From an uncultured bacterium (GTDB lineage Bacteria > Omnitrophota > Omnitrophia > Omnitrophales > Aquincolibacteriaceae), in the NCBI GenBank assembly GCA_964460795.1, contig CAYWRU010000001.1, positions 19,116-83,115 of the forward strand: a stretch of DNA of 64,000 nt. Direction: 5' to 3'. How positions within the stretch are numbered: position 1 is the stretch's first letter; the number at the start of each line of letters is the position of its first letter. Positions 2,870 to 54,012 of this stretch are shown in pieces. The notes beneath the pieces were generated by a model. The model worked only from the letters and a program-made list of their open reading frames with translations. It was not told the DNA's origin and made no database searches. Position numbers and translations under genes: made by a program.

Positions 2870-5800
2870 TACTTCTCCATAATCACAACTTTGTCGCGCA
2901 CGTCGATGTCGCCTCGCTGCCATGCATTCCACACGTCTTGCGGATTGCGGAACACACGCGGGCGACGCTCGCTCTTGCCGGCAGTGGCTGCGTAAAGTCC
3001 GCCCACGTATTCCTGGGTAGGAGCGTGAACGGGAGACTTCATGTCCGACGGGCTCAACAGGTTTCGACTAGGCAGCATTCGATCAATCGCCTCTTTACGC
3101 GCTCGATCATCCACAGGAACGTGGAACTGCATAGCGTCGCCGTCGAAGTCGGCACCAAAGCCTTTCGTCACCAACGGGCTAACGCGCAGCGTTGCGCCCT
3201 TAGTTAGTTTAGGGAAGAAGGCCATGATACCGAAACGGTGAAGTACGGGCGCCCGGTTAAGCAGCACAGGCCGTTCCAGCATTTCAGCTTGCATGGCTTC
3301 CCGCGCTAGTTCCGTCTGGTCTTTTACGTGCCGGGCCGCTTCAACCAGCGGCATTCCGCGGCGAGCTAAGTGCCGGATGATAAAGTGCTTGTAGAGATCC
3401 CAGGCTTTTTCCTCAGGAAGTCCCACTTCATCCATGTCTAGGTTCGGGTCGGGCGTAATGGTTGCTCGTCCAACCAAGTCCACCGTCGAACTAATGAGTC
3501 GGCGCTGGACCGTACCAAGCTTTGGAGACGATCCGAAGATATGTCGCAGCAGGCCGCGGACGTTCTTTTCAACAAGCTTAGGATGCGTCGGATCACCGAG
3601 GCCCGTAACCGCTTTGAACGTGTCGTATACGGCCAAGCGCTCATCACCGACATCATCAATCTGCGTCGACAGTTCCCGCAGATTCTTGTTTGCATCGATC
3701 AGTTCCTTGTATAGGTAGTTTGGATCACTTACCAGCGGCAAGCCGGTATCGGACATGGCGCTGATGGGCCGGAAGCGAGGCGGCAGAACAGGCACGCGAT
3801 TAACGAACCAATCCTTCGGGTGAATGCCGAGAGCTTGCGCGGACTTGAGATAACCGAGTTTGCGGATGGCGTGGTCACGTGCCGTCTTGCGCCCGCCGTG
3901 AATCTCGGCTCTGGCTGTAGCAATCTCTTTGGTGATGTTCATCTTGGACAAAGCCTGGCGAATGCCGCTCGGCCCGCTAGAGCCGTCAGGCAGCTTCTCG
4001 CGGCCGGCCAGGATATCCAGGAACTTCTTTTCGGTAAGGTTGAGCATACGGCGAATAGGCTCTTCCATTACCGGGTTCGGCATAGGCTCGTGCAGCTTTA
4101 CAGCGGCCCAGCGATTGCCGTCGTGCCCGCCTGTTAGCGATGGGTCGAACAAGCCGCCCTTTACCGGCTCCATGCCTTTCTCAAGGCGGACGGTATCGCC
4201 GCTGTTGATATTACGGTCGCCGGCAAGCTCATCGATGTCGCTGTCCGTCATAGCCATAACGTGCAGCTTATTGCCTTCCGGTACTACGTTAATGCCGGCT
4301 GCTTTAAGCTCGTTCACGAACTTGTTGTAGATGAGCGGAATCTGCGGCTTCGGCGGCGTTACGCCCTTCATGAACGCAAGCCAGTAGTCCTCGTTACGCT
4401 GGCCGCGAATAGCGCCGGCATCACGCATGACTTCCAAGGCGCCGTGCGACAGCAGGGCGTTCTGGTCCATTAGCGACATACGCTTGGAACCGGTCTCGCC
4501 GCCCTTGGCCGGTTCGCCGGCCATTGTGTAGCCGCCGGTACCGCGACCCTGAGCTTTGGACTCAGATGTGTGGTGCAGCTTCATGAAGAAGCGGTGACCG
4601 GTAAGTACGGCAGGAATAGCGCGGCCAGTCTCCGGATCGGTAACCGTATCCGTGTCGCTAAGGCCGTGCATCTTCAGCTGATCTTGGACGTGAGCCATCA
4701 CGTCGCTGATCTTGTCGAAGTCCAGGATCTTTTGCGGCTGACCGGTTTGCTTGGCGATCTTGCCCAACGCGGCCTCGGCTACCTGCCCCACGTTAACGCG
4801 GGAGATAAGACCGAGCGGGTTGAGCAGAATATCGAACGCATTGCCCTGGCTGTCCTTCGGCATCTGATCATCCGGAACGATATCGGCAATAACGCCCTTA
4901 TCGCCGTAGCGGCCGGAAAGCTTATCGCCCACCTGCATCTGCGCAATGGACTTAACGAGAACGGTGTGGCCGTTCTTTGTCTTCACTACGTCGGTTACTA
5001 GACCGGGAGCATGATGCTTCCATAGTTCGGTGGCGTCCTCGAATCCGGCTTGGCCTTTGCGGTGGACTTTGTTCTGAGCCGACTCGCGCTCCTTGGCCGA
5101 AAGAATGAGCGGATCGCCGAAGTTAACGACCGTGCCAGGTTTAATAACGCCGTCATCGTCAAGATTCGCAATTGTGTTACGGTCGAACTTAGATGGGAAC
5201 AAGCCTAGATACGTGCGCTTGCCGGTCTTATGCTTGTCCGTCAGTTCGATTCCGTGTTGATACATGTGCTCGCTGGACAGCTTCTTGGCCGCAGCTTCGC
5301 TGATAACGAACGCGTCTTCGTAGTTCGCACCGCGGAAAGGCAGATAGCCGGCGTACAGGTTCTTGCCCAGTGCCGCCGTACCGGTCTTGTCCGTGTAGTT
5401 GCTGTACGCCAACAGCTGGCCTGGTTGAACCTGGTCGCCGATGTTTACGGCAGCGGTATTGTGCACGTACGTTTTACGGTTGTACGGGAAATGGTTGTAC
5501 AGCTGCTTGGTGGACGTAGTGCCGTCTGGATGACTGATCGTCATCGAGTCGTTGTCCATAGCCGTCACCCAGCCCGGCTTATCGGCGCGAATAGCGCCCA
5601 TCTGCCGGCCGTGTAGCTCTTCGAACGATTCGTTCTTACCGGGAGCCAATCCCTGCACTAGCGGAGCTTCTGCATCCACAAGCGGCAAAGCCTGTGTGAG
5701 CATGCGGCTACCCATCGCTACGCGCTGACCTTTAACCGCGCTCTTAAGCGGGATGAGGTTTGCGAGCGGACTGAAGGCATTCTCAAAGTGGGGCAGCGTG

Positions 5801-9649: not shown

Positions 9650-11122
9650 TTAGCTGCCGTGAGTGCGGCTGGCGATGCTGTCACGCAAGCTCTGCGTTTG
9701 CTGCATGTACTCGTCATATGCCGAGTCCAGTTTACCGCGCAGGCCGCTAAGGTTGACTTGGCCTGCGCCGGCTAAAGCAGGGCGGCTGCCGTGCGAGCCT
9801 ACCATGGAACCAAGACCGGCTCCAAGAATGTCGCCGAGACCAAGTCGACTGAACAGCCTACGGCCTGCTAAGGTCTTGGCGCCTGCCACGCCGAGCAAGC
9901 TGCCGGCCAATCCGCTTAGACCTTCGCTTGTAGATGTTTCACCGCGCGTTAGGCCTTCAATAGGTTTGACGCCTCCGTGGATAAACCCACCGATACCGGG
10001 AACCGCGGCCAGTAGATCTTTGCGATCAAATGATTCCTTTTCCTGCGAAACCGGTTCAGCGTACAGCGGCGACGGTTGCGACTCGTACATCTTACGACGA
10101 CGGGCGCTTTGCGCACGGCGCAGAAGTTCCGACTCTTGACGCTTCTTGAAGTGGTTGTAAACCAGCGCAGCCGTAATGGCTCCGCTTCCAAGGGCACCTA
10201 CGCCGTATGCACCTGTAAGAGCACCGGCGGCGTTTGTGTACGTAGTGGGATCGATGGCCGCGGACGCTAGTTCCGAAAAGCCGGCTGTTTTCTCAAGGGC
10301 GCAGAATTGGTCGTATAGGCGATCAAGCTCTACAGCCGCCGACGAATCGGAAGCAGTTTTGCCTTTGTTCTTGTACTCGTTCATCAGCGCCTGTTCGTAT
10401 TCCGTCTGAGCGCTCTCTAGCTCGCCTTCAAGCTCGGCCTTGCGCCGGGAGTCCAGCAGCTTGTCCGCCACCTTCCAGCCGCCGTAGAGGCCTCCCAGGC
10501 CCGCTGCAAGGCCCGCGGGGATAGCCCAGGGGATTCCGGCCGGGGTCACAGCCTGATCGCCCTGCAGGAAGCTCCCAGGGCCTAATAGGCCACCTTCCTT
10601 ATTCAGCCCGCCCACGAGCGCGCCGATACCGCCTCCGGCGCCAGCGCCGTATTGGGCACCTTCTACACCGAAGCGCTTAATTGCCTGATTGCGCATCTGG
10701 CGAATCGCTTTGTCGCCAAAGATGCCCTTGAAGAAATTCATAACGGATGGCCGGGTGCTGTATAGTCCTCGAAGCAATCCAGCCATTCCGCCCAAGCCTG
10801 CGCCCACGCCAAGGCCGACTGCGCCGCCTGTGAGTGTGCGGCCAATAAGTCCTTGGTCCTCAGCCGTCTTGGCCGGAATCGGAATTTGCATGGAGACAGG
10901 GGCGGATGCCGGCCGCTTTTGCTTCTTAATGTTTCGGCGGTAAAGGCCGTGAAGAGCCGATACGCCGCGAGCCGCAGCCCCTACTCCGGCGAGGCCAAGG
11001 CCGGCAAGGCCGAGGCGACGAAGCGTATTCATTTGCATCTGGCGAGCCGTAGCCAATTGAACGGCATCTTCCAGGGAACCAACCTCAATGGCGGCGGATT
11101 TGAGTAGCGACATGCAAAACAT
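9650..11122 (-). CDS. glycine-zipper-rich membrane-associated protein (490 aa)
   Basis: Repeated small-xxx-small hydrophobic segments (GLAGLGLAGVGAAARG, GGAVGLGVGAGLGGMAGLL, GAGAGGGIGALVGG, AGLAAGLGGLYGG) and a charged coiled-coil middle. Confidence 0.6.
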   Translation of the reverse strand: MFCMSLLKSAAIEVGSLEDAVQLATARQMQMNTLRRLGLAGLGLAGVGAAARGVSALHGLYRRNIKKQKRPASAPVSMQIPIPAKTAEDQGLIGRTLTGGAVGLGVGAGLGGMAGLLRGLYSTRPSVMNFFKGIFGDKAIRQMRNQAIKRFGVEGAQYGAGAGGGIGALVGGLNKEGGLLGPGSFLQGDQAVTPAGIPWAIPAGLAAGLGGLYGGWKVADKLLDSRRKAELEGELESAQTEYEQALMNEYKNKGKTASDSSAAVELDRLYDQFCALEKTAGFSELASAAIDPTTYTNAAGALTGAYGVGALGSGAITAALVYNHFKKRQESELLRRAQSARRRKMYESQPSPLYAEPVSQEKESFDRKDLLAAVPGIGGFIHGGVKPIEGLTRGETSTSEGLSGLAGSLLGVAGAKTLAGRRLFSRLGLGDILGAGLGSMVGSHGSRPALAGAGQVNLSGLRGKLDSAYDEYMQQTQSLRDSIASRTHGS

Positions 11123-11204
11123 CCTTGTTTATCGGGACCGGTGCTCGTGACAGCCTAGCAAATATGAGACGGCTAGGAGTAGAGCAGCTACGGCGTAGTA
11201 CAAG

Positions 11205-11315
11205 CTAGAGGTTATCACTGCTGTGATGTTTCTTAAAAACGTACGCTGCTACCAGGGCGATCTGGATAAGCAGTCCAAGTCCAAGCCATAAGAACGGTGT
11301 AAGCGGACCGATCAT
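11205..11315 (-). CDS. small membrane peptide (36 aa)
   Basis: Found manually, below the track cut-off. The ATG is 1 nt after the upstream stop. Sequence MIGPLTPFLWLGLGLLIQIALVAAYVFKKHH. Confidence 0.35.
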   Translation of the reverse strand: MIGPLTPFLWLGLGLLIQIALVAAYVFKKHHSSDNL

Positions 11316-18870: not shown

Positions 18871-19210
18871 CTTCGTCTTTGTCCCGGCCCAGATCGTTGA
18901 AGCCGGTCTTTTCGCCTCGGGCCAGCTTCATACGGGCCAGCCGGATGCATTCCTCAAGCTCGCCCATGACCTCGTACGCCGTTTGGTGCTCTCGGGAGTA
19001 GTCCAGCACCTCGTCTTCGCTCAAGTGCTCGCACAACTTGTTACGAGCCGAGCGGTAGTAGTTGAGCCACTTCTCCATCGTCTGCAGATCCGATTCGCTG
19101 AGGTTGTCCTCGTCCATGCAGATGATGTCGGCCGTAAAGCCGCCAATCAGGCGAATCATGTCGGCCGCATAGTCCCGTTTTGCCTTTTCTTTCGCATCCC
19201 ATTCGGACAT
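18860..19210 (-). CDS. hypothetical protein (116 aa)
   Basis: Track ORF, helical and acidic. Confidence 0.55.
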   Translation of the reverse strand: MSEWDAKEKAKRDYAADMIRLIGGFTADIICMDEDNLSESDLQTMEKWLNYYRSARNKLCEHLSEDEVLDYSREHQTAYEVMGELEECIRLARMKLARGEKTGFNDLGRDKDEDAQ

Positions 19211-41491: not shown

Positions 41492-42214
41492 TTAGGTTAC
41501 GACTGGTTCAGCGGCTGCAACTGCCGGCTCAGTATTGGCGTCAAAGTCAGCTACAGTCAATTCGCCGGCCAGCAAGTTGAGACTCATATCGCGGTCTACA
41601 TCGTAACCGCGCAAATATCGAGTGAACTGCTGGATCATAAGGCCGGCGGCGATGCCTGACGTATAGATCGTGCTCCGAGCGGTACAAGCGCCTTGCTGCG
41701 CTTGCTCAGGAGCGAACAACGTCTTCGGATAGTACTTGGCGTCAGGATCACTGCTGACGGCCAGAATACGCATGACTTCTCCAAGCATTCGCCCATCGGC
41801 ATAGAAGCGGCTAGCTTTACCGCCGTTCTCCCAGATGGACTGGCGAACCTTGATCGAATCGACGCAGCAGAACATCTGCGGCTTTGAATACTTGCCGCGA
41901 TATACGTCGTCAATTGCCGTGACTTCACATTCGGGATCAATTTCCAGTAATGCCGCTTTCAGAGCTTCGACTTTCTTCATTCCCACATCCGCAAGGCGGT
42001 AGCCTTGGGTAGTTCGGTTGTGGTCTTCGACAGTGTCGAAGTCGATAATCGTCAAACGCCGAACACCCATGGCGACCAACTGAATGGCCACCTGTCGTCC
42101 GATTGCGCCTACGCCGATTACCGCAATGTTAGCCTCTGCCATCTTCGCCGCCGGGACAAAGCCCGACTGGCGAATGAAACGATCAGTAGGCTTAGTCGAC
42201 GAATCCGTCATCAT
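41492..42214 (-). CDS. ThiF/MoeB/E1-like adenylating enzyme (240 aa)
   Basis: RFIRQSGF..ANIAVIGVGAIGRQVAIQLVAMGVRRLTIIDFDTVEDHNRTTQ, i.e. a Rossmann GxGxxG plus the D..N..R of E1-like enzymes. Overlaps the JAB gene by 23 nt. Confidence 0.8.
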   Translation of the reverse strand: MMTDSSTKPTDRFIRQSGFVPAAKMAEANIAVIGVGAIGRQVAIQLVAMGVRRLTIIDFDTVEDHNRTTQGYRLADVGMKKVEALKAALLEIDPECEVTAIDDVYRGKYSKPQMFCCVDSIKVRQSIWENGGKASRFYADGRMLGEVMRILAVSSDPDAKYYPKTLFAPEQAQQGACTARSTIYTSGIAAGLMIQQFTRYLRGYDVDRDMSLNLLAGELTVADFDANTEPAVAAAEPVVT

Positions 42215-43649
42215 GCCCTCCTAGCATGTGCGCCGACGCCATTTGTCCTTCGGACTCTTCGGCAGCGTCGGCTTGTTGATTGTGGTCAGCAATTTCCTGT
42301 ACTGACATCGAGTTGACTTCGGACTCCCAAGCGGCGAGTTCTCGCTCAAGTTCCGCTTCGTCCTCAGCCTCGTCCGGTTGAATGATGGCGTCGATTTCGA
42401 TGTCGGCATTGCGTTTTTGCTCAGCCTCTTCGAAACGCTCCCAATCAGCGTCTGTGATTTCTTCAAGCGGCTTGTCGCCGAAGAACTTGGAAGCACGCTC
42501 GTTTAGACTGATTGTGCGATCATCGTCGTCATCGTCGTCATCTTCCGAATCCGGAACGGTCGGATCGTCCAAATCACCGATGCTGTACATCGATGTGATG
42601 ACGTCTTCCGCCATTTCTTCCCAGCGAAGGAGTTCGCCTTCCTCCCACTCTTCTTGAGTGAGCGTATGTATGTCCTTCGCATTGAGTTCAGCGATGCGAT
42701 CACCGCGAGCAATCCATGCGCCGGACTCTTCTTTCGCCACACGTCGGAGGATGGTCTTCCAGCCGTCCAGCGTGAGGCTGTCCGGACACGAATTGGCGAT
42801 GTAATCGTCGGCGGCAGCGGCCTTGGCATCTTCTTCGTCTTTGCGTAGACGGCGAGCTTCTTCCGCGTCCTCCGCGCTTACTTGATCCCGATACGTCGTA
42901 ATAGGAGGTAAGCCGCGTGTTTGATAAACGGAAGGAAGCCGGTGCCCTGGGATTCCGTTGACATCAAGGGCTTCTCCGTCATCGGAGAAGATTTGTCCTT
43001 GGCGAACGGCACTGCGACTGATGTGAGGATGCGCGACCCCTTTCGAGGGCGCCGGCGTCCAAACCTCCCGCGAGCAGCAGTCTTCGTACTCAGCAATCCA
43101 TTCGTCATAGTTGACGCCCGGAAATGCGCAATCGGTGGTAACTTCCACCGGCAGCGTCATGGCGTAACCGGGGCCAGCCGTGTACTTAAGCCGGCAATAT
43201 GTATCACCGCCCTTAGCGATGATGAACATGACGGACCAAGCTGGAGCACCAAAGCATTTGGCGAACGTAGCTTCGTCAACTCCGGACGGCGATGGCGAAG
43301 AACCAGGGTGAGTATGGATCCATACTCGGAAGCACTGATCCATCGTGTAGCCAAGTTCGGCCATATCTTCGACGTACGCATTTACTGCGTCTTCGTCGAA
43401 TTCGACGGTAACCGAACTGCACACCTGTTTGATCATCATCACATCTTCGATGAACAGCGGGTTGTCCGCTGCGCCGACACCGAAGAAGCCTACCTCGGTA
43501 TCGCCGAGATCGCGAATGAATTTGAGCTTAGCCCAGGCGTATGGGCTAAAGACGATCTTGTTTCGAAGCTTCGGGGGCTCCGGTACGAAATACTTCGCGA
43601 CCTTCATGGGAGTAACTGATTTGCCCTTCGACGCTACGTTAGGACTCAT
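42192..43649 (-). CDS. JAB/MPN+ (JAMM) metalloprotease with long acidic C-terminal extension
   Basis: Exact JAMM signature: DTE90VGFF...H150-T-H-PGSSPSP-S160-GV-D163 (nt 43275-43316). I chose the ATG at 43649, an 11-nt overlap with the E2-like stop. The track start is 43763. Confidence 0.75.
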   Translation of the reverse strand: MSPNVASKGKSVTPMKVAKYFVPEPPKLRNKIVFSPYAWAKLKFIRDLGDTEVGFFGVGAADNPLFIEDVMMIKQVCSSVTVEFDEDAVNAYVEDMAELGYTMDQCFRVWIHTHPGSSPSPSGVDEATFAKCFGAPAWSVMFIIAKGGDTYCRLKYTAGPGYAMTLPVEVTTDCAFPGVNYDEWIAEYEDCCSREVWTPAPSKGVAHPHISRSAVRQGQIFSDDGEALDVNGIPGHRLPSVYQTRGLPPITTYRDQVSAEDAEEARRLRKDEEDAKAAAADDYIANSCPDSLTLDGWKTILRRVAKEESGAWIARGDRIAELNAKDIHTLTQEEWEEGELLRWEEMAEDVITSMYSIGDLDDPTVPDSEDDDDDDDDRTISLNERASKFFGDKPLEEITDADWERFEEAEQKRNADIEIDAIIQPDEAEDEAELERELAAWESEVNSMSVQEIADHNQQADAAEESEGQMASAHMLGGHDDGFVD

Positions 43650-45078
43650 CGTTGTACTCTCGATGGTTGTATTGGAAGTATGGGGTGTGGCCGTAGGCTG
43701 TTCCGCGCGCTTCTGCGACAGACTCTTGTCTTTGTTCTTCCGACGTTTGTTCTTCCGTCCCATTGGCTTCCTTTGCCTCTTCTGCTTCGTCTACTTCAGC
43801 AATTGCTTCCGCGATTACGGATTCAATTTTGATAGGGGACGACGGAATTGTTAGAGTTTCAGTGGATTCTTGATTCAACGCCTCGGCTTCAGCGTCTTCG
43901 GCAGCTTTCGCTTTGGCTTCAATTTCTTCGTCGATCTGCTCCATGCACCGTTCGCACATGGCCTTGCCGGCAAACTGCTTATGCTCGGGCGCATCTTCCG
44001 GGCATGTCCAGCCGTGCTGATTGGTTTCAGCTAGACAGGCTGTGCAGCATGTCCTGTCGCACTTTGCGCATTTACCAACACAGTCGTCGGAATTCGAGCA
44101 AGTCGACTCAGAGCAAGCGTCGCACGTAGTGCGGCAGTTAGAGCAAAGCGAATTACTGCACCAAACGCAGGTGGCCGTGCAGCCGGCGCACGCGATGCGT
44201 TCATGGCATCCTTGGCACGAGTAATCTTCGCCGTACGTAGGATCGCCACAGTCATCACAATATGGCGCATTATCATCGTCCTCGTCGTCATCGCTTTCAT
44301 CCCAGACGTCCATTTCGTGGTACGCTGCGCCTGGGTTGTACACGCGAAGAATAGCCAACCACATGGTTAGCGCGTCTACGATAAGGCCTTCGTCCAAGGC
44401 GGTAGAGATAACTCCACCATGGTCGCCTTCGCATAGAACGCCGCCAGACATGTGCGGATGATAGTAACCGTGACCGGACCGAGAGTCTTCACTCATTGGC
44501 GTCACGTTCATAGGCCGCGACCGGCTATACTCCCACAGGTTCATGCGGATGCAGAACTGGCCCATATTCATCTTGGCCGGCTTGCCGTTCAGATCCGTGT
44601 AATCAAGCGTAATCTCTTCAGTGATCACCTCGATGTACGTTTTGGCTGCCGTATTACCGCGATAGAATTTGCATGACACGAACGGTACATCGCGCATGTC
44701 GCGCAGCTTTTTGAGATCGTGGAGGATGCCGTTAACATCGGACGAAGCATCAACGAAGCTGTTTCGCCGTTCTAACTCGGAAGCAATGATAACGATCTCC
44801 GCATGCGCATCGCGCAGAGCGTTAACAAGCTTCTGGTTTTCGGCTTTCGCCGCTTCGGCGTCCCCTTTTGACTGCGCCTTTTCCAACGCTGCTGTTAAAG
44901 TTACGACCGTGTCCCAGCGGCTTTCCATCATGCGCCAGTTAATAGGCGTTAGTGGGCTGCTTTTCTGGGCGCCGTACTTATATGTCTCACGTTCCGGAAT
45001 TTGCTCGGCGATTTTCTTGGCCATGAGAAGAAGCTGCTTATCGCTAAGCGTTACTTCTTCAAAGCCGGCTAAAGTCAA
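43639..45078 (-). CDS. E2 (UBC)-like protein fused to CxxC-rich zinc module (479 aa)
   Basis: TTG start with AGGAG upstream. UBC-like core around aa 115-255: FCIRMNLWEY..PMNV..YHPHMSGGVLC216EG..LIVDALTMWLAILRVYNP. Nine CxxC pairs in aa 274-378. Acidic tail. Confidence 0.55.
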   Translation of the reverse strand: MTLAGFEEVTLSDKQLLLMAKKIAEQIPERETYKYGAQKSSPLTPINWRMMESRWDTVVTLTAALEKAQSKGDAEAAKAENQKLVNALRDAHAEIVIIASELERRNSFVDASSDVNGILHDLKKLRDMRDVPFVSCKFYRGNTAAKTYIEVITEEITLDYTDLNGKPAKMNMGQFCIRMNLWEYSRSRPMNVTPMSEDSRSGHGYYHPHMSGGVLCEGDHGGVISTALDEGLIVDALTMWLAILRVYNPGAAYHEMDVWDESDDDEDDDNAPYCDDCGDPTYGEDYSCQGCHERIACAGCTATCVWCSNSLCSNCRTTCDACSESTCSNSDDCVGKCAKCDRTCCTACLAETNQHGWTCPEDAPEHKQFAGKAMCERCMEQIDEEIEAKAKAAEDAEAEALNQESTETLTIPSSPIKIESVIAEAIAEVDEAEEAKEANGTEEQTSEEQRQESVAEARGTAYGHTPYFQYNHREYNDES

Positions 45079-45088
45079 GGTTCTCTCC

Positions 45089-45123
45089 TAGCTAAAAAAG
45101 ACGGGGCGGCTTTCGCCGCCCCG
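45089..45123 (-). terminator. rho-independent terminator with TAGCTA box between Ubl and E2-like genes
   Basis: Minus strand: CGGGGCGGC-gaaa-GCCGCCCCG, then TCTTTTTTAGCTAGGAG. Confidence 0.7.
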
Positions 45124-45162
45124 CCCGTGATTCAACCTAGGCCCGGCTGCTCCGCAGCGGGG

Positions 45163-45420
45163 TTAGGCTACGAGGGCGCCCTCGATCTTTTGCGGCGTCA
45201 CAGTGACGGAGTCGCCGTCCTTCAACGTAGCGCCAGCCGAGGTGCTCTCTCGGTTGACCTTCACGTTGAAACGCTCAAAAGCGACCGAGGCCGACACGCC
45301 GAGCTTCGTCTCCAGAAGCTGGCCTACCGTATAGTTCGCAGGCACTTCGATGTTATCGACACCGCCGCCCGTGTTGCTGTTCAAAAACCGAATCTTGACC
45401 GTTTCGAAACCGCTACCCAT
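45163..45420 (-). CDS. ubiquitin-like beta-grasp protein (ThiS/MoaD-like, 85 aa)
   Basis: VKIRFL..NIEVPANYTVGQLLETKL..FNVKVNRE..ATLKDGDSVTVTPQKIEG-ALVA. The spacing matches the beta-grasp pattern, with a Gly near the C-terminus followed by a 4-residue tail. Confidence 0.6.
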   Translation of the reverse strand: MGSGFETVKIRFLNSNTGGGVDNIEVPANYTVGQLLETKLGVSASVAFERFNVKVNRESTSAGATLKDGDSVTVTPQKIEGALVA

Positions 45421-47238: not shown

Positions 47239-47260
47239 TCGAGAATTTTCCTCGGGTGTG

Positions 47261-47288
47261 AAACAAAAAACGCAGCAATAGCTGCGTT
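47261..47288 (-). terminator. rho-independent terminator
   Basis: Minus strand: AACGCAGC-tatt-GCTGCGTT, then TTTTGTTT. It ends the ORF-free region downstream of the AAA gene. Confidence 0.7.
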
Positions 47289-47607
47289 ACACAATTATTG
47301 TGACGCGCGTAGGAAGAGAATTTAGACCTACGCGAAAGAAAAAATGGGAGCTAGATGGGCACACCTAGGCCGGTTGCGGAAAGGTACGCATTCGTGCCAT
47401 GGTTCTAGATCGGTCGGATGGATCGATGGAGCCCTACCGGAAGGTGAGGCGATCTCTTCTAGTGCCCATCCGGGTCATGTCGCACAGTGGCTTCTCCGGT
47501 ATTGCATGACCGACGTTGTTAGGAAACGTCATAACAAGGATGTATGTAGGATTTACTAACCTCCACTGTATCCTTGCCAGCTCACTCCCACACGTATTGG
47601 AGCCAAC
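47289..47607 (-). ncRNA. candidate structured ncRNA or long 3'UTR (class unknown)
   Basis: 319 nt without an ORF, lying between the AAA stop and a terminator. Long-range 9-bp helix GATGGGCAC/GTGCCCATC plus several 6-8-bp hairpins. Strand not settled. Confidence 0.3.
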
Positions 47608-49002
47608 CTAGGCTAAGTGGTCAATAGCCCGCGCAGCCGCTAGTTCTTCGGTGTCGGCAATTTGATTGGCTATTTCGATACATCTGTTTTGGAACTCGGC
47701 ACCGGTCTCACCATCGCCGGCAGCAACCGCCTTATCGATCATGTCGGGCCAATCCACCAAAATCCGTGTCGCCAGTTTACGGCGCCCGGCTTCATTCAGA
47801 GGCAGCATCTCGACTTTGTAATCGACGCGCCCGTCCCGCACCAAAGCGCTATCCAATTTGGATGCGTCGTTAACGGTAAGAATTACAATAATACCATCGC
47901 GACGTTTAACGCCGTCAATAGTATTGATGAATGTACGAAACGATACGCCGCCGGCGATTGTTTCGTCTTTGTTAAATACGCGGTCTATGTCTTCGAACAA
48001 AGCGATGCACGGAGTGAATGCAGTGACCTTGTTCCAAGCGGCCGTAAACTCATGCGTATGCATGCTGGACAAATCAATAGAGTACAAGCGGAGGTCCAGC
48101 GAATACGCTATAGCTTGAGCAAATGCCGACTTACCGGTACCAGGAAGCCCGTACAATTGCATACCGCGCTGCCACGGCAGTCCGCGGTCTTTGTACCACT
48201 TCTCCGAGCGGAACCAATGCTGTATTCGCTTTAACGCTAATTCAGCCTGATCCGGTAACCACATGTCTTTAATCGGATCGCCGGAGGATTTGTATTGATC
48301 CAAGGTTTTCTTGTCGTGAACAAGCGTTCTTACATGCTCGAACCGACGCAACCCATGGCCCATACCTATCGCCGTAATAAGCTCGTTTACGTCGCCTTGC
48401 CCGCCGCTTTGACCGGACGAAGGCTCGCGGACTACCGTGTTGTTTTGTCCGTAAGATCCAGTTAGATGCGTGATACAGTAGCGCTCTTTAAGCTCAGGGT
48501 CTCTCTTATCCTCATCGGCGGCTAACCTGTTGTAGGCTTCGACAATATGTGCCTCTACGTCGAACGTGCCGCGTAAATAAGTGATGGAGACGCAGTTAGG
48601 CGACCTGGCCGTGCTGCCGGCGGGTGCCGGAGCGACGCCGCCGTTAGATGTACCACTGCCTAAGTGATCAGGTATGGCATTTGTTACCCATACCGGAATC
48701 CAGCCTTTCCAGAACAGAACGCCGGCCGGACCCATTCGCTCAAACGGGATTGTACGATATTTGGACTCTATCGGCACATAAGCTCTATCGGAGCCATAAC
48801 GCGCCGGTCCAAGCTTGGTCGTCTTGTATTTATCTTGAAGCACTACAAGAAGAACGTAACCAACCTGATCGTTTACTTCGGCGGTCATGATGAAGTAGTT
48901 CACTACAGACAACAGCATTAGTCGCGCCCGGCTCCAGGCTGCAATAAGCAAACCAGAGCTAGCGGCGAGAATGCCGACCCAAATTCCTTTTGATGTGTCC
49001 AT
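47608..49002 (-). CDS. BCS1-like membrane-anchored AAA+ ATPase (464 aa)
   Basis: N-terminal TM IWVGILAASSGLLIAAW. Walker A GLPGTGKSAF, Walker B ALFEDIDRVF. VSFRTFINTIDGV and RDGRVDYKVEM resemble Bcs1 (LTFSGLLNALDGV, RPGRVD). Confidence 0.7.
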   Translation of the reverse strand: MDTSKGIWVGILAASSGLLIAAWSRARLMLLSVVNYFIMTAEVNDQVGYVLLVVLQDKYKTTKLGPARYGSDRAYVPIESKYRTIPFERMGPAGVLFWKGWIPVWVTNAIPDHLGSGTSNGGVAPAPAGSTARSPNCVSITYLRGTFDVEAHIVEAYNRLAADEDKRDPELKERYCITHLTGSYGQNNTVVREPSSGQSGGQGDVNELITAIGMGHGLRRFEHVRTLVHDKKTLDQYKSSGDPIKDMWLPDQAELALKRIQHWFRSEKWYKDRGLPWQRGMQLYGLPGTGKSAFAQAIAYSLDLRLYSIDLSSMHTHEFTAAWNKVTAFTPCIALFEDIDRVFNKDETIAGGVSFRTFINTIDGVKRRDGIIVILTVNDASKLDSALVRDGRVDYKVEMLPLNEAGRRKLATRILVDWPDMIDKAVAAGDGETGAEFQNRCIEIANQIADTEELAAARAIDHLA

Positions 49003-49010
49003 CCGAATCC

Positions 49011-49057
49011 ATAGCTAAAGAGTAAGAAAGACGGGGTGGCCGTTTCCGACCACCCCG
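49011..49057 (-). terminator. rho-independent terminator followed by TAGCTAT box
   Basis: Minus strand: CGGGGTGG..CCACCCCG stem, then TCTTTCTTACTCTTTAGCTATGG. Confidence 0.65.
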
Positions 49058-49093
49058 CTTAGTTGTTATCCACACTGCTTCCAGATTTGGCGA

Positions 49094-49921
49094 TTAGCCG
49101 TGCGTGATCATCTGGTTATGCACCGTGCCTTCCGGCGCCGGCGCGGGCAGAGACACGGACTGCATACCGTTTCGGCTAGCGCGGATCTTTTCGAGCAGCG
49201 CGTGCGTATCGGCTTTCTTCGCATCTTCGGCATCCTTCGCTTCAGCAAGCAGGCGATCGGCGCTTTGGCCGTTCATGTCCGCTACGCCGAGCGAAGTATA
49301 GACCTGCGTGTTGAGCGCGGCCTTTGCTTTCTTGTATTCTTCGTCTTCGAAACCGCCGTTGACGGAATCGCCGATAAGAGCAAGGGAGGCGTTGGTCGCG
49401 TTCGAGATCTGCAGGCGAAGTTGCTTGTTTTCGGCGTCTTTCCGTTCGGCATCGATCGCTTCTTTCGCGGCCTTGATGATGAGCTTCTGGTTGCCGACCT
49501 GCGAGGTCAGATTTTCCAGAGTTTTACGCTCTGCCTGGATTCGCTTCTGCAGCGAGTCCAAATCAGCGACGTAGTTCATCAGCGTGCCGTTCTTATCGCC
49601 TTCCGGCGACTGGTCGATCAAATTGATACGGTTGAGAAGCCTCTGTTCCTCTTGCGTCATCTGCGTCAGAGCTTCTTGCGACTGCATCATCATGCCTCGC
49701 AGAGTCCCTAGCGCGATGTCCGCTGCTTTCATTTTTGCAGCCTGTTCATCGATCTTCTGAGCGACTACGGCTGCGGGATCGGTATTGAGAAGCGCATTGC
49801 TTGCTTTACCGATCTTAGCCCGACCAAAGGTCACGATGGACCAGAAGGCCGGACGGTTGAGTACGAAAATCACCGACAAGGCGCCGGCAACAAAAATCAA
49901 AGACGTTTCGATAATACCCAA
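49094..49921 (-). CDS. PspA/IM30-like coiled-coil protein with N-terminal TM (275 aa)
   Basis: TTG start with AGGAG upstream. IGKASNALLNTDPAAVVAQKIDEQAAKMKAADIALGTL parallels the PspA N-terminal helix (NANINALLEKAEDP..). Long heptad region. Confidence 0.45.
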   Translation of the reverse strand: MGIIETSLIFVAGALSVIFVLNRPAFWSIVTFGRAKIGKASNALLNTDPAAVVAQKIDEQAAKMKAADIALGTLRGMMMQSQEALTQMTQEEQRLLNRINLIDQSPEGDKNGTLMNYVADLDSLQKRIQAERKTLENLTSQVGNQKLIIKAAKEAIDAERKDAENKQLRLQISNATNASLALIGDSVNGGFEDEEYKKAKAALNTQVYTSLGVADMNGQSADRLLAEAKDAEDAKKADTHALLEKIRASRNGMQSVSLPAPAPEGTVHNQMITHG

Positions 49922-49946
49922 AACGGAGTCTCCTACTCGTTAAAGA

Positions 49947-49965
49947 TTGTGAACGCGCGTTCAAG
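49947..49965 (-). repeat. palindromic element copy
   Basis: The plus strand reads ttgtgaacgcgcgttcaag. Overlaps the stop of 49961..50269 and lies about 25-45 nt upstream of the PspA-like start. Confidence 0.75.
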
Positions 49966-50269
49966 ATCCGAAGTTTGGAGCGGACTGGGTCCCGCACCCT
50001 GGGCACTGCGTAGCGTACTTGTACTTCATAGTGCCGCATACGCCGCAGCGGGTCTGGTTACCCTGAGCCCCTGTAATAGGATTGGCCCGCTGCTGCTGAC
50101 TGGCTCGGTACGAATTGTCCGCATTGATGAAGCTTTGCATCACGCTTTCGAGGCTTGGCTGCGGTGCCGGCTTGGGCGCCGTAAGACGAGCAACCCCGAA
50201 CCCAATGCCGACCAAAACAACCAACACAAGGACCGCAATGCCGGCCACCACGAACTTGTTGCGAAACAT
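49961..50269 (-). CDS. TM plus zinc-ribbon protein (102 aa)
   Basis: TM VVAGIAVLVLVVLVGIGFGV. C-terminal CGVCGT...CPGCGT. Confidence 0.6.
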   Translation of the reverse strand: MFRNKFVVAGIAVLVLVVLVGIGFGVARLTAPKPAPQPSLESVMQSFINADNSYRASQQQRANPITGAQGNQTRCGVCGTMKYKYATQCPGCGTQSAPNFGS

Positions 50270-50343
50270 AGCTTATCTCCCCAAACTAAGTGCGACCAAT
50301 TCGGGCCGCGCGATGCGGCCGCAAAATGCATGGCCGCTATACG

Positions 50344-51033
50344 TTAATCAGTCAAAACTGCTTCGCGTCGAAGTGCGTAACCGAATTCGACTCGGTACGT
50401 ACTATTGTTTTCGTGCTCAACGAACGCATACTGCACGATGTCGACGCCGTCCAATTGCGTCTTTCGGCTGTAATCCCAAACGGACACGTACCGCTTAGTT
50501 ACTTCATCCGTCTCAACCTTTCCGCTGCCATCGGTATCGGCAATGTCAGTGACCGTGCCCATGATGGCTTTACGTCGGCCGTCAAGTCGCGAGTAATGCG
50601 ATTGGACGCCGTCGGTTTCGATGATGAACTTACCTTCGGGATCTTCTAGAGCGCCGGCAATGCCTGAGTCGGCTTCAGCCTCTTCGTGCAAGTGCAAAGC
50701 GATCAGGTACAGCTTGCCGTACTTTTTGTATGCACGAAGTCGGATAGCTTGGTCCATGCCGTCTTTAGAGCCGATGAGCGAATAATCGCACCACTGCTCT
50801 CCGGAGATGCTGGATTCAAACTGACTCAATTTCGTGACGCGAAACTGGACACCGGTGAAATCGATTCCTTCCAACCTCACGGGGTATCCCACCAACAATT
50901 CCAACGGATTGAAGACAGTGTCTTCTGTCCGCTTAGGCTGGGCGGGTGGAGCGGGCGACGCAGCCGGCTTTGAGCCAAACAACGCCACCAAGAACTTCCA
51001 CCCTCTAACAAGCAGGCTGATAATCCAGGCCAT
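50344..51033 (-). CDS. N-terminally anchored protein of unknown function (229 aa)
   Basis: TM MAWIISLLVRGWKFLVALF, then a beta-rich domain. No motif named with confidence. Confidence 0.55.
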   Translation of the reverse strand: MAWIISLLVRGWKFLVALFGSKPAASPAPPAQPKRTEDTVFNPLELLVGYPVRLEGIDFTGVQFRVTKLSQFESSISGEQWCDYSLIGSKDGMDQAIRLRAYKKYGKLYLIALHLHEEAEADSGIAGALEDPEGKFIIETDGVQSHYSRLDGRRKAIMGTVTDIADTDGSGKVETDEVTKRYVSVWDYSRKTQLDGVDIVQYAFVEHENNSTYRVEFGYALRREAVLTD

Positions 51034-51047
51034 GCGTTCCTTTCGAG

Positions 51048-51620
51048 TTAGAACCCATTACGCGCTTTGGCTACCATGATCACCAAAGCAAGAAGTAGTA
51101 CAGTCAGCAAAACCCATCCAAAGACTTTTGCGGCTTTTTCTTGAGCCGCTTGTTCTTCTGGCGTCAACGGTTTGGGCGGAGCGCTTGATACGGTAGACGA
51201 CGGTTTGTCATCGTCATCGGAATCCCATCCCCAGAAAATCACACTGGGCGAGCTAGAAGTGGATGATCCGCTGCTTGACTTACTTGTCGTCGAAGGCGAA
51301 GAGCTTGTAGTGCTTTTCTTATCGCTCGTAGATCCCCAGGACCATGTGCTTCCGCCGCCGCTGGATTTGGTCGATCCGCTGTAGCTTGGGCTGCTGGACT
51401 TGGTTGAGCCGCCGGAGTAGGTGCTCGACTTGGAGCCGCCTGAATACGTGCTCGACTTAGAGCTGCCCCCGCTGTAGCTGGAGGAGCTTTTACTGCCTCC
51501 GCTATAACTGGACGAACTGCGCGACGACCCGCCCGAATAAGAGCTTTTGCCTGCGCTCCATGCTTCGATCGGGGCAAGGACTAAGGCCACGGACAAAAGG
51601 ACTGCTAGAAACCGATTCAT
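51048..51620 (-). CDS. Ser/Gly-repeat membrane protein (190 aa)
   Basis: Signal peptide, about 6 repeats of S-S-Y-S-G-G-S-x-K-S, DSDDDDK, and a C-terminal TM VFGWVLLTVLLLALVIMV. Confidence 0.6.
   Translation of the reverse strand: MNRFLAVLLSVALVLAPIEAWSAGKSSYSGGSSRSSSSYSGGSKSSSSYSGGSSKSSTYSGGSKSSTYSGGSTKSSSPSYSGSTKSSGGGSTWSWGSTSDKKSTTSSSPSTTSKSSSGSSTSSSPSVIFWGWDSDDDDKPSSTVSSAPPKPLTPEEQAAQEKAAKVFGWVLLTVLLLALVIMVAKARNGF
51336..51551 (-). repeat. coding tandem repeats (about 27-30 nt units, SSYSGGSKS)
   Basis: Imperfect tandem units read in the DNA and in the protein. Confidence 0.7.
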
Positions 51621-51622
51621 CG

Positions 51623-52540
51623 CTACTCCTTAGCGGTGGGGGCAACTGCTGTCGCCGGAACGGTAATGAAAGGAAGCTGCGTGTCACCGCTCATAAATTG
51701 CGGCATTTTGCCGTCCCACTTTTCCAGCGCTCGATACTGGAGAAGAGCCGGTGTAAGAGACTTGGTAATGGAATCGTTAGCCTGGGCTACGCCGAGCGCT
51801 TCGGTCTTTTTGGCTTCAGCCAGACCAGTAGCTTGCTCTTTGGCTTGCTCGGCTTCAGCCTTAATCTGTTCGACCTTTTCACGAGCAGCGGCAGCGGATT
51901 GTTGAGCCTCAATGGTGCGGTTAATAGCCGCTTCGATATTTGGAGGCCAACGCAGCGCGCCGATGAATGTCACCATGTCGATTTCAAAGTCATCACCGAT
52001 TTCTTCAATCAGGCGTTTCTTAGCGTCGACCAGCAACTTTTCGCGACCAGGGCCGTACAGGTCTTTGAGCGTCATCGAGCCGGCAAGGTTGTTGATGGCA
52101 TCGCGGATCTTGCCGCGCATGAACTCACGCACGACCTTTTCCTTGTCTTCAATGCCGCGCAGTTTTACGAAAACGTGCGGGATGCGCTCCCGTTTGATTT
52201 GGTAGTTTGCAGCAACGTCCGCGCCGATCTGCACGCCTTCACAGCTGAACGTGATACCTTCATCCGTGGGCGAGCCCTCGTTGTTATCCTTGGTCCAGAT
52301 GGCTCGGAGCATGTAGTTCGGGTACACGTAGATGCGCGTGGTCCAGTCGTTGTACCATACGCGACCGGTTTCAATCGTGATGTTATCGACACCGCGATCC
52401 TCGCCGTAGAGCGGAACCTTGATGCCGACGTGGCCCGGTTCGATCAGCTCACTGCTGCAGCCGGTGATAACCGGCGTAATAACCATACCACCGACGAGAA
52501 GACCCAAAACAAGGATCACTCGCGCTTTCAGATAATTCAT
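51623..52540 (-). CDS. SPFH/Band-7 (prohibitin/flotillin-like) lipoprotein (305 aa)
   Basis: Lipobox VITGC. GHVGIKVPLYGEDRGV..ETGRVWYN..YVYP is SPFH-like. C-terminal AQQSAAAAREKVEQIKAEAEQAKEQA helix. Confidence 0.7.
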   Translation of the reverse strand: MNYLKARVILVLGLLVGGMVITPVITGCSSELIEPGHVGIKVPLYGEDRGVDNITIETGRVWYNDWTTRIYVYPNYMLRAIWTKDNNEGSPTDEGITFSCEGVQIGADVAANYQIKRERIPHVFVKLRGIEDKEKVVREFMRGKIRDAINNLAGSMTLKDLYGPGREKLLVDAKKRLIEEIGDDFEIDMVTFIGALRWPPNIEAAINRTIEAQQSAAAAREKVEQIKAEAEQAKEQATGLAEAKKTEALGVAQANDSITKSLTPALLQYRALEKWDGKMPQFMSGDTQLPFITVPATAVAPTAKE

Positions 52541-52555
52541 GCCTTCACTCCGTTA

Positions 52556-52771
52556 TTATTCTTTTTCCTTAATCAGTACGCGCAGCAGGGCTCGCACCCA
52601 GTAAACCGCGATAATGATATCCAGAAAGAAGATGCCGATGGTTCCGAGTACGCCGAGCATCGACGTATTACTGGCTCGAGATACCATGTTTGTCGTATAC
52701 GTAGTACCTGCGATGGTACTGATAACGACGAGAATGGCGATAAACGCCAGGCCGATGAGTTTCGGCAACAT
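52556..52771 (-). CDS. small two-TM membrane protein (71 aa)
   Basis: Track ORF. TAATG junction with the upstream small ORF. Confidence 0.5.
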   Translation of the reverse strand: MLPKLIGLAFIAILVVISTIAGTTYTTNMVSRASNTSMLGVLGTIGIFFLDIIIAVYWVRALLRVLIKEKE

Positions 52772-52950
52772 TAGGTAACACTTTCTTTGAGAGCTTTGAG
52801 CTTGAAGCGGGCGCGCTTCAATTTCTCTTTTGTCTTTTTGACCTCATCCTTGCTCACGTTTGCCAGGAAGTTTTCAGAGGCCAAGCGCCGTTCCAGGAAT
52901 TTGACGTACTCCGTTTCGTGCTGCAGTTGCTGCTCAATTCGCTTGTTCAT
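52771..52950 (-). CDS. small helical basic protein (59 aa)
   Basis: Found manually. MNKRIEQQLQHETEYVKFLERRL. Confidence 0.4.
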   Translation of the reverse strand: MNKRIEQQLQHETEYVKFLERRLASENFLANVSKDEVKKTKEKLKRARFKLKALKESVT

Positions 52951-53151
52951 GTTAAACCTCGCGGGGCCTAGGTCTCCGTCCCCCTCAGTCCGTCACGCCC
53001 TAGGCCCCGCGCACAATTTTTACTGTCGGCCGAGAAGAGGCTTCAGATCACAGGCAAACAAGTAATCTAGGTAGTCCCGGAATTCGCTATCAGACATAGC
53101 GCTGATTTCTTCCGGTGAAACTAGATCAAAGTCTCTGCGGCCGACTGCTCT

Positions 53152-54012
53152 CTAGCCGCCGTGGTTTTCGGCAAGCTCGCCAAGCTGCTTCACGCGCTCG
53201 GCCACCTTTTCGTAAGTGTCCTGTTGAAGCGCAACCGCGCCGATCAGGAGTTCTTTCATCTGTGCGAACGTGAAACCGTCCGACAGTTCGACGAGATGCG
53301 TAATCTTCTCGTCGTCCAGTTCACCTTGGCTGAGCTGCGTGACGTACTTTGTCCGAATGTTCTTCGGCACCGGCCCAACTTCAATCTGGCGATCAATGCG
53401 CGACGGGCGATACAGGATACGCGCCGGAATGGCGTTCAGGTCGTTGGCCGTGGCCAAGTACATGATGCCGTTGCGTGTGGTTCCGAAACCGTCGAGGATT
53501 TTCAACCACCAGTCTTCAAGGCGGGCGTTGTTCTTGAGCAACGAATCGAAGTCGTCCATGATCGCCAACATAGGGCGATCCGGCTCGTACTGGTTGAGCT
53601 TGTTGAAGCAGCCGTAGAACCCGTCCGGTTTTTCGTTGACGATGGCGACGAGGCCGTCCATCTTGATGATCTTGCCGGCGAACTGGCGAACGATGGCCGT
53701 TTTGCCTGTGCCAGGAGGGCCGTGCAATACGATGCCGCGTTTGTGGGTGAGGCCCCATTTGCGGTATCGGGGCGCTGCCGCCCAGAAGGCCTTGAACTCT
53801 TGGAAGAGCGTCGTGACGCGTTCGTCGTCGTCGCTTTCCACGAGCATGTCTTCTTGTGCCTTATCTTGTTCGGCGTGTACGTTGCCGAACATATCGCGGG
53901 AGAAACGATAGGCGCCGGCCGGAAGGCGATCCGGCATGCGTTCTTTCTGCTGCAGAGCCGAGGTCATGAAAGAGTTGTCACCGGTCATCTGCCAAGCAAT
54001 CTGCGCGCTCAT
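53152..54012 (-). CDS. classical AAA+ ATPase (286 aa)
   Basis: Walker A LHGPPGTGKTAI, Walker B AIMDDFDSLL, second region of homology YRPSRIDRQIEV. Confidence 0.8.
   Translation of the reverse strand: MSAQIAWQMTGDNSFMTSALQQKERMPDRLPAGAYRFSRDMFGNVHAEQDKAQEDMLVESDDDERVTTLFQEFKAFWAAAPRYRKWGLTHKRGIVLHGPPGTGKTAIVRQFAGKIIKMDGLVAIVNEKPDGFYGCFNKLNQYEPDRPMLAIMDDFDSLLKNNARLEDWWLKILDGFGTTRNGIMYLATANDLNAIPARILYRPSRIDRQIEVGPVPKNIRTKYVTQLSQGELDDEKITHLVELSDGFTFAQMKELLIGAVALQQDTYEKVAERVKQLGELAENHGG

Follow-up and report, generated by a model that had tools for sequence, protein, structure and literature searches.

Does a virus whose DNA was recovered among that of an uncultured bacterium carry its own kit for guarding the membrane of its host? 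The question is raised by nine neighbouring genes (g1 to g9) in a stretch of 64,000 nucleotides (nt), here called the window, which covers positions 19,116 to 83,115 of contig CAYWRU010000001.1 (assembly GCA_964460795.1; Omnitrophota, Aquincolibacteriaceae). The initial annotation described these genes as one phage-encoded membrane-stress module, with a PspA-like protein, a zinc-ribbon protein and an SPFH protein reminiscent of the Bacillus subtilis pspA-ydjGHI operon, bracketed by two AAA+ ATPases. When comparing the genes to their homologues and to the gene order of related loci, we find a composite region instead. The comparative evidence identifies, at the level of sequence, a phage operon core g5-g6-(g7)-g8 in which g8 encodes a PspA protein. 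The AAA+ genes g1 and g9 are accessory and accompany the core in some lineages only, whereas g3-g4, perhaps together with g2, form a passenger cassette that encodes the SPFH protein. For this composite reading as a whole, in which the membrane role of PspA is taken from its better-known relatives, we see about as much reason for belief as for doubt. The features of the region are as follows.

g1, 53152-54012, minus strand: 286 amino acids (aa), soluble classical AAA+ ATPase (PF00004, 2.3e-14)
g2, 52771-52950, minus strand: 59 aa, helical and charged protein; overlaps g3 by 1 nt
g3, 52556-52771, minus strand: 71 aa, two-transmembrane hairpin peptide judged from its hydrophobic segments, partner of the SPFH lipoprotein
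g4, 51623-52540, minus strand: 305 aa, SPFH/Band-7 protein with signal peptide and lipobox, predicted exported lipoprotein
g5, 51048-51620, minus strand: 190 aa, signal peptide, SYSGG(S/K/R) repeats, DDDD patch and C-terminal transmembrane helix (from sequence and hydropathy)
g6, 50344-51033, minus strand: 229 aa, N-terminal helix and beta-rich domain with a DxDxDG loop
g7, 49961-50269, minus strand: 102 aa, N-terminal transmembrane helix and C-terminal CxxC...CxxC ribbon, optional member of the module
g8, 49094-49921, minus strand: 275 aa, TTG start, transmembrane-anchored PspA/IM30 protein (ESCRT-III superfamily)
Hairpin with T-rich run, 49031-49058, minus strand: between g8 and g9, GC-rich, terminator- or attenuator-like
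g9, 47608-49002, minus strand: 464 aa, membrane-anchored classical AAA+ ATPase (PF00004, 5.2e-18)
Hairpin with T-run, 47269-47288, minus strand: intrinsic-terminator-like, at the end of the 369-nt gap beyond g9

Which of these genes belong together can be judged from their order in relatives. The loci that we compared are numbered with an L; L004 to L007 are close relatives (89% PspA identity) and the other loci with this PspA family are divergent (23-30% where measured). The close relatives are collinear with the window and are uninformative for linkage. Among the divergent loci, L008 (PspA 28%) contains g1 (64% identity), a g5-like gene, g6 (39%), a gene for a Cys-ribbon lipoprotein, PspA and g9 (40%), with no SPFH cassette between them, and L013 (27%) contains g7, PspA and g9. 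L015 (27%) has a g5-like gene, g6 (32%), PspA, a 533-aa AAA+ protein and a g1-like AAA+ protein (32%) in a neighbourhood that is otherwise unrelated. The huge-phage-like contigs L010/L011, L017 and L018 (23-30% where measured) have a g5-like gene, g6 and PspA, and L012/L024 (29%) have a DUF350 gene (YjfL family), g6 and PspA; L024 also encodes a short protein that matches the long g5-type proteins in their C-terminal part. A g6 homologue (E 1e-9 to 1e-40) is located directly upstream of the PspA gene, with at most one small gene between them, in all seven lineages with upstream sequence (window/L004, L008, L015, L010/L011, L017, L018 and L012/L024), and a g5-type gene is found upstream of g6 in six of the seven. 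Synteny is thus conserved for the core g5-g6-(g7)-g8, which recurs in distant relatives, but not for the nine genes as one unit.

A hairpin follows the PspA gene in the window (-25.9 kcal/mol, z = -5.6), and the copy in L004 is identical. Equivalent stable hairpins with a T-run, of unrelated sequence, are found just behind the PspA genes of L008 (z = -9.4) and L010 (z = -6.7). Given this recurrence, the PspA gene may be the place where a transcription unit ends or is attenuated. Several translation-related genes occur within 10 kb of the PspA pair in the huge-phage-like loci, namely those for S21 (L010, L018), IF3 (L010, L017, L018), peptide deformylase (L010, L018) and DnaJ (L017). A gene for a thiamine pyrophosphate-dependent enzyme is also located near the pair in L010, L017 and L018, and L018 has an IDO-like gene.

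We conclude from its family that g8 is a divergent, transmembrane-anchored PspA/IM30 protein. A word-indexed homologue search with g8 returned only copies of 89-97% identity, and as such searches yielded only close relatives for both g8 and g6, an exhaustive search and a profile were needed. Exhaustive phmmer searching of 1.8 billion representatives resulted in a family of 35 proteins of about 250 aa each, which align end to end. Individually, 29 of the 35 match PF04012 (PspA_IM30; best 1.8e-15). The nearest distant relative, P0003, which aligns to g8 over its full length (E 5.7e-24), has a precomputed match to PF04012. The family profile matches the Vipp1/PspA chains 6zvr, 7o3w and 8qbw in the PDB at 1.6e-11 to 5e-9. 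The alignment covers residues 22-217, from alpha0 via a conserved DP to the C-terminal 'LAxLK'-type helix, and profile positions 27-45 align with Vipp1 residues 5-22 up to the DP. The next matches are generic coiled coils that score about nine orders of magnitude worse. When aligned with hhalign, the family also matches E. coli YjfJ (90.8% probability).

The layout of g8 agrees with that of PspA/IM30/Vipp1 in its alpha0-like segment and its DP motif (48-49), and probably in a long alpha1-alpha2/3 hairpin. AlphaFold2 (AF2) predicts the helices of this hairpin at residues 49-104 and 114-189 (mean pLDDT of 74-96 per 10-residue block over 51-160), although Foldseek did not separate it from other coiled coils. 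Canonical PspA and Vipp1 are peripheral proteins, whereas 34 of the 35 family members have an extra N-terminal transmembrane helix (~3-22 in g8). Positive charges are missing before this helix (one member has a single charge) and number three to five after it. This pattern predicts an N-out/C-in anchor that leaves the PspA domain in the cytoplasm. The module further differs from cellular Psp systems in the lack of PspF, PspB and PspC partners and in the strong divergence of g8. All 11 contexts that we examined for the family are phage-like metagenomic contigs. Using tblastn, neither g8 nor the central members of the PspA and g6 families (P0009 and P0043) had a match in isolate phages; at this sensitivity, the core is thus unknown in cultured phages. 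In L018, tblastn gave no PspA match and the PspA ORF (open reading frame) is probably frameshifted. There, the homologue was called as a 162-aa fragment (10800-11288) that lacks the transmembrane helix and degenerates past about 100 residues, which is probably an assembly frameshift and not a true truncation.

The constant partner of the transmembrane PspA protein is g6, a new protein that is beta-rich in its AF2 model. Its family comprises 17 proteins, all of them metagenomic. Beyond a DxDxDG/EF-hand-type loop we detected no Pfam domain in g6. The loop, DTDGSGKVETDE (residues 166-177), fits the 12-residue pattern D-x-[DN]-x-[DS]-G-x-[IV]-x-x-x-E. AF2 predicts an N-terminal helix and a beta-rich body (pLDDT 87.9, pTM 0.79). 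In this model, the loop follows a beta-strand (157-165) and precedes a short helical turn, which itself runs on into a strand. With Foldseek, no structure in the PDB or BFVD matched this model with a TM-score above 0.25. A lipocalin, GFP-like, outer-membrane-protein-barrel or TerD-like fold was rejected as no comparable fold was found in these databases, and homology to YjfK/DUF2491 was rejected with hhalign (1.6% probability for E. coli YjfK). A membrane anchor was rejected at the level of the family; the N-termini of the homologues are hydrophilic or amphipathic, thus g6 is probably cytoplasmic and not anchored.

Two known gene arrangements resemble the pair of g6 and g8. TerD proteins are beta-rich calcium binders, and g6 has neither a Pfam match nor a fold match to TerD. 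In the Jug huge gut phages, a pspA-like gene adjoins terD (PMC12880540), so that these are large phages with a PspA-like gene beside a TerD-related gene; they were also the single mention of phage PspA in our full-text literature search. The second arrangement is that of the YjfJ-type operons of Proteobacteria, for which Ravi et al. 2024 describe a CesT/Tir-PspA dyad, DUF350/YjfL, DUF4178 or DUF2491, and lipoproteins of the type DUF1190/YjfM (PMC11237479). These operons likewise combine a PspA paralogue with a beta-rich protein inside the cell and with partners that are exported or sit in the membrane. In L024, though not in the window, a DUF350 gene adjoins the g6 homologue on its upstream side, and E. 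coli YjfM has a Ser/Gly/Tyr-rich tail that is reminiscent of the g5 repeats. In contrast to the YjfJ-type operons, the phage loci have no CesT/Tir-like gene and no polyamine genes, and the partner is encoded upstream of PspA.

In the product of g5, the N-terminus resembles a signal peptide and the C-terminus forms a transmembrane helix; SYSGG repeats and an acidic DDDD patch are also present, so that a region of low complexity is predicted to face the periplasm. The same architecture is found in proteins encoded directly upstream of the g6 homologue in L004, L008, L015 and L010. The g5-type gene of L017 is also upstream of the g6 homologue, where it is cut by the contig end so that its N-terminus is missing, and in L018 one 97-aa gene is located between the g5-type gene and the g6 homologue. 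The exported part of g5 and its homologues (L008, L015, L010, L018) consists of [S/G]-Y-[S/G]-type repeats such as KSSYSGGS, which are followed by a poly-Asp patch in the window, L004 and L015. The longer versions of huge phages have an extra conserved domain (W-x-YHH...NPDLxY...AAYNP) before the C-terminal transmembrane helix; in L024, this domain is a separate 111-aa protein. g7 carries CGVC (75-78) and CPGC (89-92) behind an N-terminal hydrophobic helix. It has a homologue in L013 (42% identity), and in L008 its position is taken by a lipobox protein that contains CxxC...CxxC; between g6 and PspA of L015, L010, L017 and L024, g7 is absent. A spanin-like reading of g5 and g7 was rejected, as neither the module genes nor the ten genes scanned on its flanks include a recognisable endolysin or holin.

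The products of g1 and g9 are classical AAA+ ATPases that score 54.4 and 66.2 bits against PF00004 (curated cut-off 21.2 bits). In its AAA domain and its transmembrane anchor (~6-24), g9 comes nearest to BCS1: among the solved single-domain matches, mitochondrial BCS1 scores best (89-91 bits, compared to about 47 bits per Cdc48 domain), although the BCS1_N domain (PF08740) gave no match at E values up to 1. Walker A and B of g9 are GLPGTGKS (285-292) and IALFEDID (333-340), and the Walker B of BCS1 is likewise of the 'ED' type. The best solved relatives of g1 are AFG2 and YjoB. Its Walker A is GPPGTGKT (98-105) and its Walker B, LAIMDDFD (149-156), is unusual in lacking the usual catalytic Glu, so that g1 may be a slow or regulatory ATPase. 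All other module ATPases compared have the 'ED' form, except the g1 orthologue of L008 (7268-8137), which has the same Asp-Asp motif; Glu-Asp is found in the L015 orthologue and in all g9-type proteins.

Orthologues of g1 are present in L008 (64% identity) and L015 (32%, E 9e-41), and those of g9 in L008 and L013 (40% each). AAA+ genes are thus found near the core in four lineages, with g1 and g9 in the window and L008, g9 in L013 and two genes in L015. We found no relatives of g9 in IMG/VR. An NCBIfam scan of the module proteins yielded nothing above the curated cut-offs, and the CdvC model matched as a weak generic AAA hit (21-28 bits, cut-off 650). The arrangement resembles ESCRT-III and Vps4 in that an ESCRT-III-superfamily protein is encoded beside one or two classical-clade AAA+ ATPases. 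It differs in that the ATPases are closest to BCS1 and AFG2/YjoB, with g9 being membrane-anchored, and neither g1 nor g9 showed an MIT domain or a Vps4 family match. Bacterial PspA systems are considered to lack Vps4 (PMC7619361). Transmembrane PspA/Snf7 homologues with AAA+ partners do occur in some bacteria according to Ravi et al. 2024 (PMC11237479); compared to these operons, the module has no ABC transporter or OmpA partner and is encoded by a phage.

The remaining third of the region has a different distribution. g4 is an SPFH lipoprotein, matching PF01145 (Band_7) at 66.9 bits (cut-off 23.6; E 3e-18) and phrog_200 'lipoprotein' at 6e-55, with the lipobox ITGC at residues 25-28. Using tblastn, we detected g4 in 589 phage records, the hosts of which include Staphylococcus, Pseudomonas, Klebsiella, Burkholderia and Caulobacter. 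Identity is 32-36% to the ten best phage proteins and down to 31.5% among the 30 matches listed; no solved structure is related to g4 by sequence. We inspected the SPFH loci of seven unrelated isolate phages (L001, L002, L003, L020-L023), and in all seven the SPFH gene has a lipobox and a two-transmembrane gene of 65-84 aa is located directly upstream. The products of these small genes, including g3, have a common P-x-L-[IV]-S-like linker. In the isolate phages, the inter-helix linker motif is P-[AW]-L-[IVF]-S-x-x-D. The pair spans podo-, sipho- and myovirus-type genomes whose hosts differ widely. g4 is therefore an ordinary member of a phage SPFH cassette for which the annotations in BcepF1, ProddE, RpAliso and others read HflC/HflK-like lipoprotein or prohibitin, and with which it has the lipobox and the upstream two-transmembrane gene in common. 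For g2, the only Pfam matches were sub-threshold and of coiled-coil type.

This cassette and the core occur apart from each other. By tblastn, the isolate phages with the SPFH cassette have no member of the PspA or g6 families, and the cassette is missing from the homologous module in L008 (between g1 and g5), L015, L010, L017, L018 and L024. We thus conclude from these comparisons that g3-g4, perhaps with g2, are a separate and ordinary phage cassette that is lodged between g1 and g5 here, and that it is not specifically tied to PspA, which makes about one third of the proposed module commonplace. The SPFH domain and the PspA domain are moreover predicted to lie on opposite sides of the membrane. 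L008 encodes a 187-aa Band-7 protein without signal peptide or lipobox (3873-4436), some 3 kb upstream of the g1 gene in that locus. By BLAST, this protein has no relation to g4, thus two types of SPFH protein exist in this phage group.

For the single genes, the initial annotation fared well. All nine minus-strand ORFs are found where it had placed them, and its descriptions of g1 and g9 as classical AAA+ ATPases, with a membrane-anchored g9 whose AAA domain is BCS1-like, are borne out by PF00004, the Walker motifs and the best solved match. The same is true for g4 as SPFH lipoprotein and g3 as two-transmembrane peptide with two hydrophobic segments, and for the features of the ribbon protein g7 and the Ser/Gly-repeat membrane protein g5, which are visible in sequence and hydropathy. 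That the 275-aa protein is PspA-like with a transmembrane helix is upheld by the matches of its family to PF04012 and by the profile and hhalign results; its similarity to PspA/ESCRT-III is seen in the match of the family profile to Vipp1/PspA at about 1e-11. That the 229-aa protein, g6, is 'anchored' is doubtful, given the hydrophilic or amphipathic N-termini of its homologues. The annotation did not recognise that g6 and g5 are, from their conserved linkage, real partners of PspA.

The window looks like the non-structural arm of a jumbo phage genome. It encodes a 1487-aa phage-type multisubunit RNA polymerase beta-like protein, the best cultured relatives of which are those of Salmonella phage Arash and of 187-kb Vibrio phages (~30% identity), as well as an ATP-dependent ligase, nucleases and a glucosyltransferase, and g6 is carried on a contig of 174,705 bp. 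The 7.9-kb region has no DNA similarity match to isolate phages. A sigma-70 promoter scan of the region found none, which is uninformative for a phage with its own RNA polymerase. The non-coding gap after g9 (47239-47607; 369 nt) is unusually long and ends in a hairpin (47288-47269) before the next gene. About 2 kb downstream of the module, a cluster of the Ubl-conjugation type is located on the minus strand (41492-45420). It encodes a 240-aa ThiF/E1-like protein (PF00899, 5e-23), a 523-aa protein with a weak Prok-JAB match (1.8e-3), an 85-aa ThiS-like beta-grasp protein (3e-3) and a 479-aa Cys-rich protein without a match; a ThiF gene was also called in L004 and L008.

How might the composite region work? 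PspA/Vipp1 polymers stabilise and remodel membranes. In our proposed explanation, the N-terminal transmembrane helix of g8 would tether the protein to the host inner membrane, on its cytoplasmic face, and g8 would polymerise there while a large phage goes through its long infection cycle. The polymer would seal or reshape the inner membrane and thereby preserve the proton-motive force. g6 would serve as a stoichiometric regulator or adaptor, possibly one that responds to calcium entering through membrane lesions, and g5 and g7 would link the system with the periplasm. The AAA+ ATPases would remodel or disassemble the PspA polymer, as Vps4 does with ESCRT-III. The hairpin after the PspA gene may keep PspA, the structural polymer, more abundant than the ATPase. 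We infer these steps by analogy with the established biology of PspA, Vipp1 and ESCRT-III (PMC7619361, PMC12358876, PMC11237479).

Several observations weigh against this explanation or against parts of it. On its own, g8 has no match in Pfam, PHROGs or a PDB sequence search, thus its assignment to PspA is transitive. The AF2 model of g8 has low confidence in the N- and C-terminal thirds, and Foldseek finds long coiled coils that are non-specific, with Vipp1 (7o3w) at rank 9 (E 0.08, TM-score 0.44-0.55). Calcium binding by g6 is predicted from the motif. The DxDxDG loop is kept in 15 of 16 aligned family members and missing in one, and EF-hand Pfam models match six of seven members (best 9.3e-5), all under the curated cut-offs. 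As the loop lies in a strand-loop-short helix arrangement and not in a helix-loop-helix, it is a DxDxDG-type loop in a non-EF-hand context. No AAA+ gene was seen within 8-10 kb of the core in L010, L017, L018 and L024, hence a dependence on the ATPase would not be universal. The synteny between the window and L008 is partly general genome collinearity. Lastly, no capsid or tail gene is found inside the window, so that its viral origin is deduced from gene content.

ALG-2 acts in eukaryotic ESCRT-III wound repair. A parallel between g6 and ALG-2 is speculative; it leads to a stronger version of the composite reading, in which large phages encode a self-contained, calcium-gated ESCRT-III-like machine with a transmembrane PspA polymer, g6 as ALG-2-like calcium-sensing adaptor and BCS1-like ATPases in the place of Vps4. 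We regard this version as rather unlikely.

Three other functional explanations were weighed against the composite reading. The first is counter-defence. Many abortive infection (Abi) effectors are membrane-active. The phage PspA might protect against effectors of this kind that perforate the membrane, or it might act as a decoy for a defence that uses PspA, such as the conjugation of CBASS (a system that defends against phages by signalling with cyclic oligonucleotides) cyclases to PspA. Host PspA is indeed a conjugation target that damps type II CBASS, and deletion of pspA slightly improves immunity (PMC11153139); the phage also has its Ubl/E1/JAB-like cluster about 2 kb from the module. However, PADLOC defence models match the module proteins only by generic AAA+ similarity (IetA, TRIP13), and large phages of very different kinds have the core in common, which fits a housekeeping function in infection better. 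We consider counter-defence improbable, although it survives best among the rivals.

Next, the transmembrane PspA protein and the AAA+ ATPases might bud, tubulate or fuse host membrane for vesicles or compartments, or they might time or execute the disruption of the envelope at lysis. The neighbouring genes function in DNA and RNA metabolism, and an endolysin or holin was not recognised among the module and flanking genes scanned. To our knowledge, there is no evidence for internal membranes in this phage group, which also counts against such a role. In its favour, PspA and Vipp1 tubulate and fuse membranes, and ESCRT-III performs scission together with Vps4 (PMC7619361, PMC12358876). By prediction, the gene set spans the envelope, with exported g5, g7 and g4 and cytoplasmic g6, g8 and g9, and the small Cys-pair lipoprotein that replaces g7 in L008 is loosely reminiscent of o-spanins. 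On balance, a role in membrane building or egress appears quite improbable to us.

The initial annotation offered the third explanation, that of a single Psp-SPFH membrane-stress kit in which the SPFH protein recruits PspA, as in pspA-ydjGHI (ydjFGHI). There are good reasons why this was proposed. As in B. subtilis, the genes for PspA, a Cys-ribbon transmembrane protein and an SPFH protein are adjacent on the same strand. The genes g2 to g6 are tightly packed, with the 1-nt overlap of g2 and g3 followed by gaps of 15 (g3-g4), 2 (g4-g5) and 14 nt (g5-g6), and gaps are looser elsewhere (201 nt for g1-g2, 74 for g6-g7, 39 for g7-g8, 91 for g8-g9 and 369 from g9 to the next gene). Linkage of PspA, Band-7 and zinc-ribbon (ZnR) proteins is described for Firmicutes (PMC11237479, PMC8581546). 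Ravi et al. 2024 list AAA+ ATPases, Band-7, ZnR, DUF350 and the beta-rich DUF4178 among bacterial PspA gene neighbours, with ydjFGHL-type Band-7/ZnR/TPM associations as well as CesT/Tir dyads with DUF350 and DUF4178; viral genomes come up in none of the 12 (of 15) matching passages listed (PMC11237479).

The resemblance to ydjGHI does not hold up when the parts are compared. The SPFH protein here is a predicted lipoprotein of an independent cassette, which none of the more distant relatives has in its module and which occurs in the 589 phage records without this PspA family, so that the nine genes are not a single kit. None of the nine products has a Pfam match to TPM (YdjH-like) or YdjG-like domains at E values up to 1; YdjG is a double-ZnR/NTF2-like protein, whereas g7 lacks a YdjG-like domain and contains one CxxC...CxxC ribbon. 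Recruitment in the manner of YdjI is unlikely because the signal peptide and lipobox of the SPFH protein predict its export, whereas the PspA domain, which comes with a membrane anchor of its own, should stay in the cytoplasm. The recruitment model is the least supported of these three rivals, and we consider the one-kit explanation improbable. The PspA/g6/AAA+ core is phage-specific, unreported and not of the ydjGHI type.

That there is no module, and the genes are neighbours by chance in a long block of unrelated early genes, is very improbable and for g5-g6-g8 already refuted by the comparisons: about 55 kb of the window are co-directional (nearly all long ORFs between ~9 and 63 kb, i.e. 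those of at least 120 aa that are un-nested in a longer minus-strand ORF, are on the minus strand, so that co-directionality alone is uninformative) and the synteny with L008 reaches well past the nine genes, but g6-PspA, mostly with g5, recurs in the non-collinear contexts of L015, L010, L017, L018 and L024, and the AAA+ linkage recurs in L015 in a different gene order.

For annotation, the composite reading means that the SPFH lipoprotein and the two-transmembrane peptide should be seen as a distinct and very common phage cassette that stands outside the Psp systems. PspA and Vipp1 are recognised as ESCRT-III proteins of bacteria, and how their polymers are triggered and disassembled is an open question (PMC7619361). 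If the calcium-gated machine were true, a virus would encode the first PspA system that has both a defined trigger and a cognate ATPase for its disassembly. In such a compact operon, the trigger, the effector and the remodeller could be studied together in a genetically isolated system. More generally, large phages appear to invest in the control of host inner-membrane integrity, which bears on how cells are kept energised during long infections and on the arms race with membrane-targeting abortive infection.

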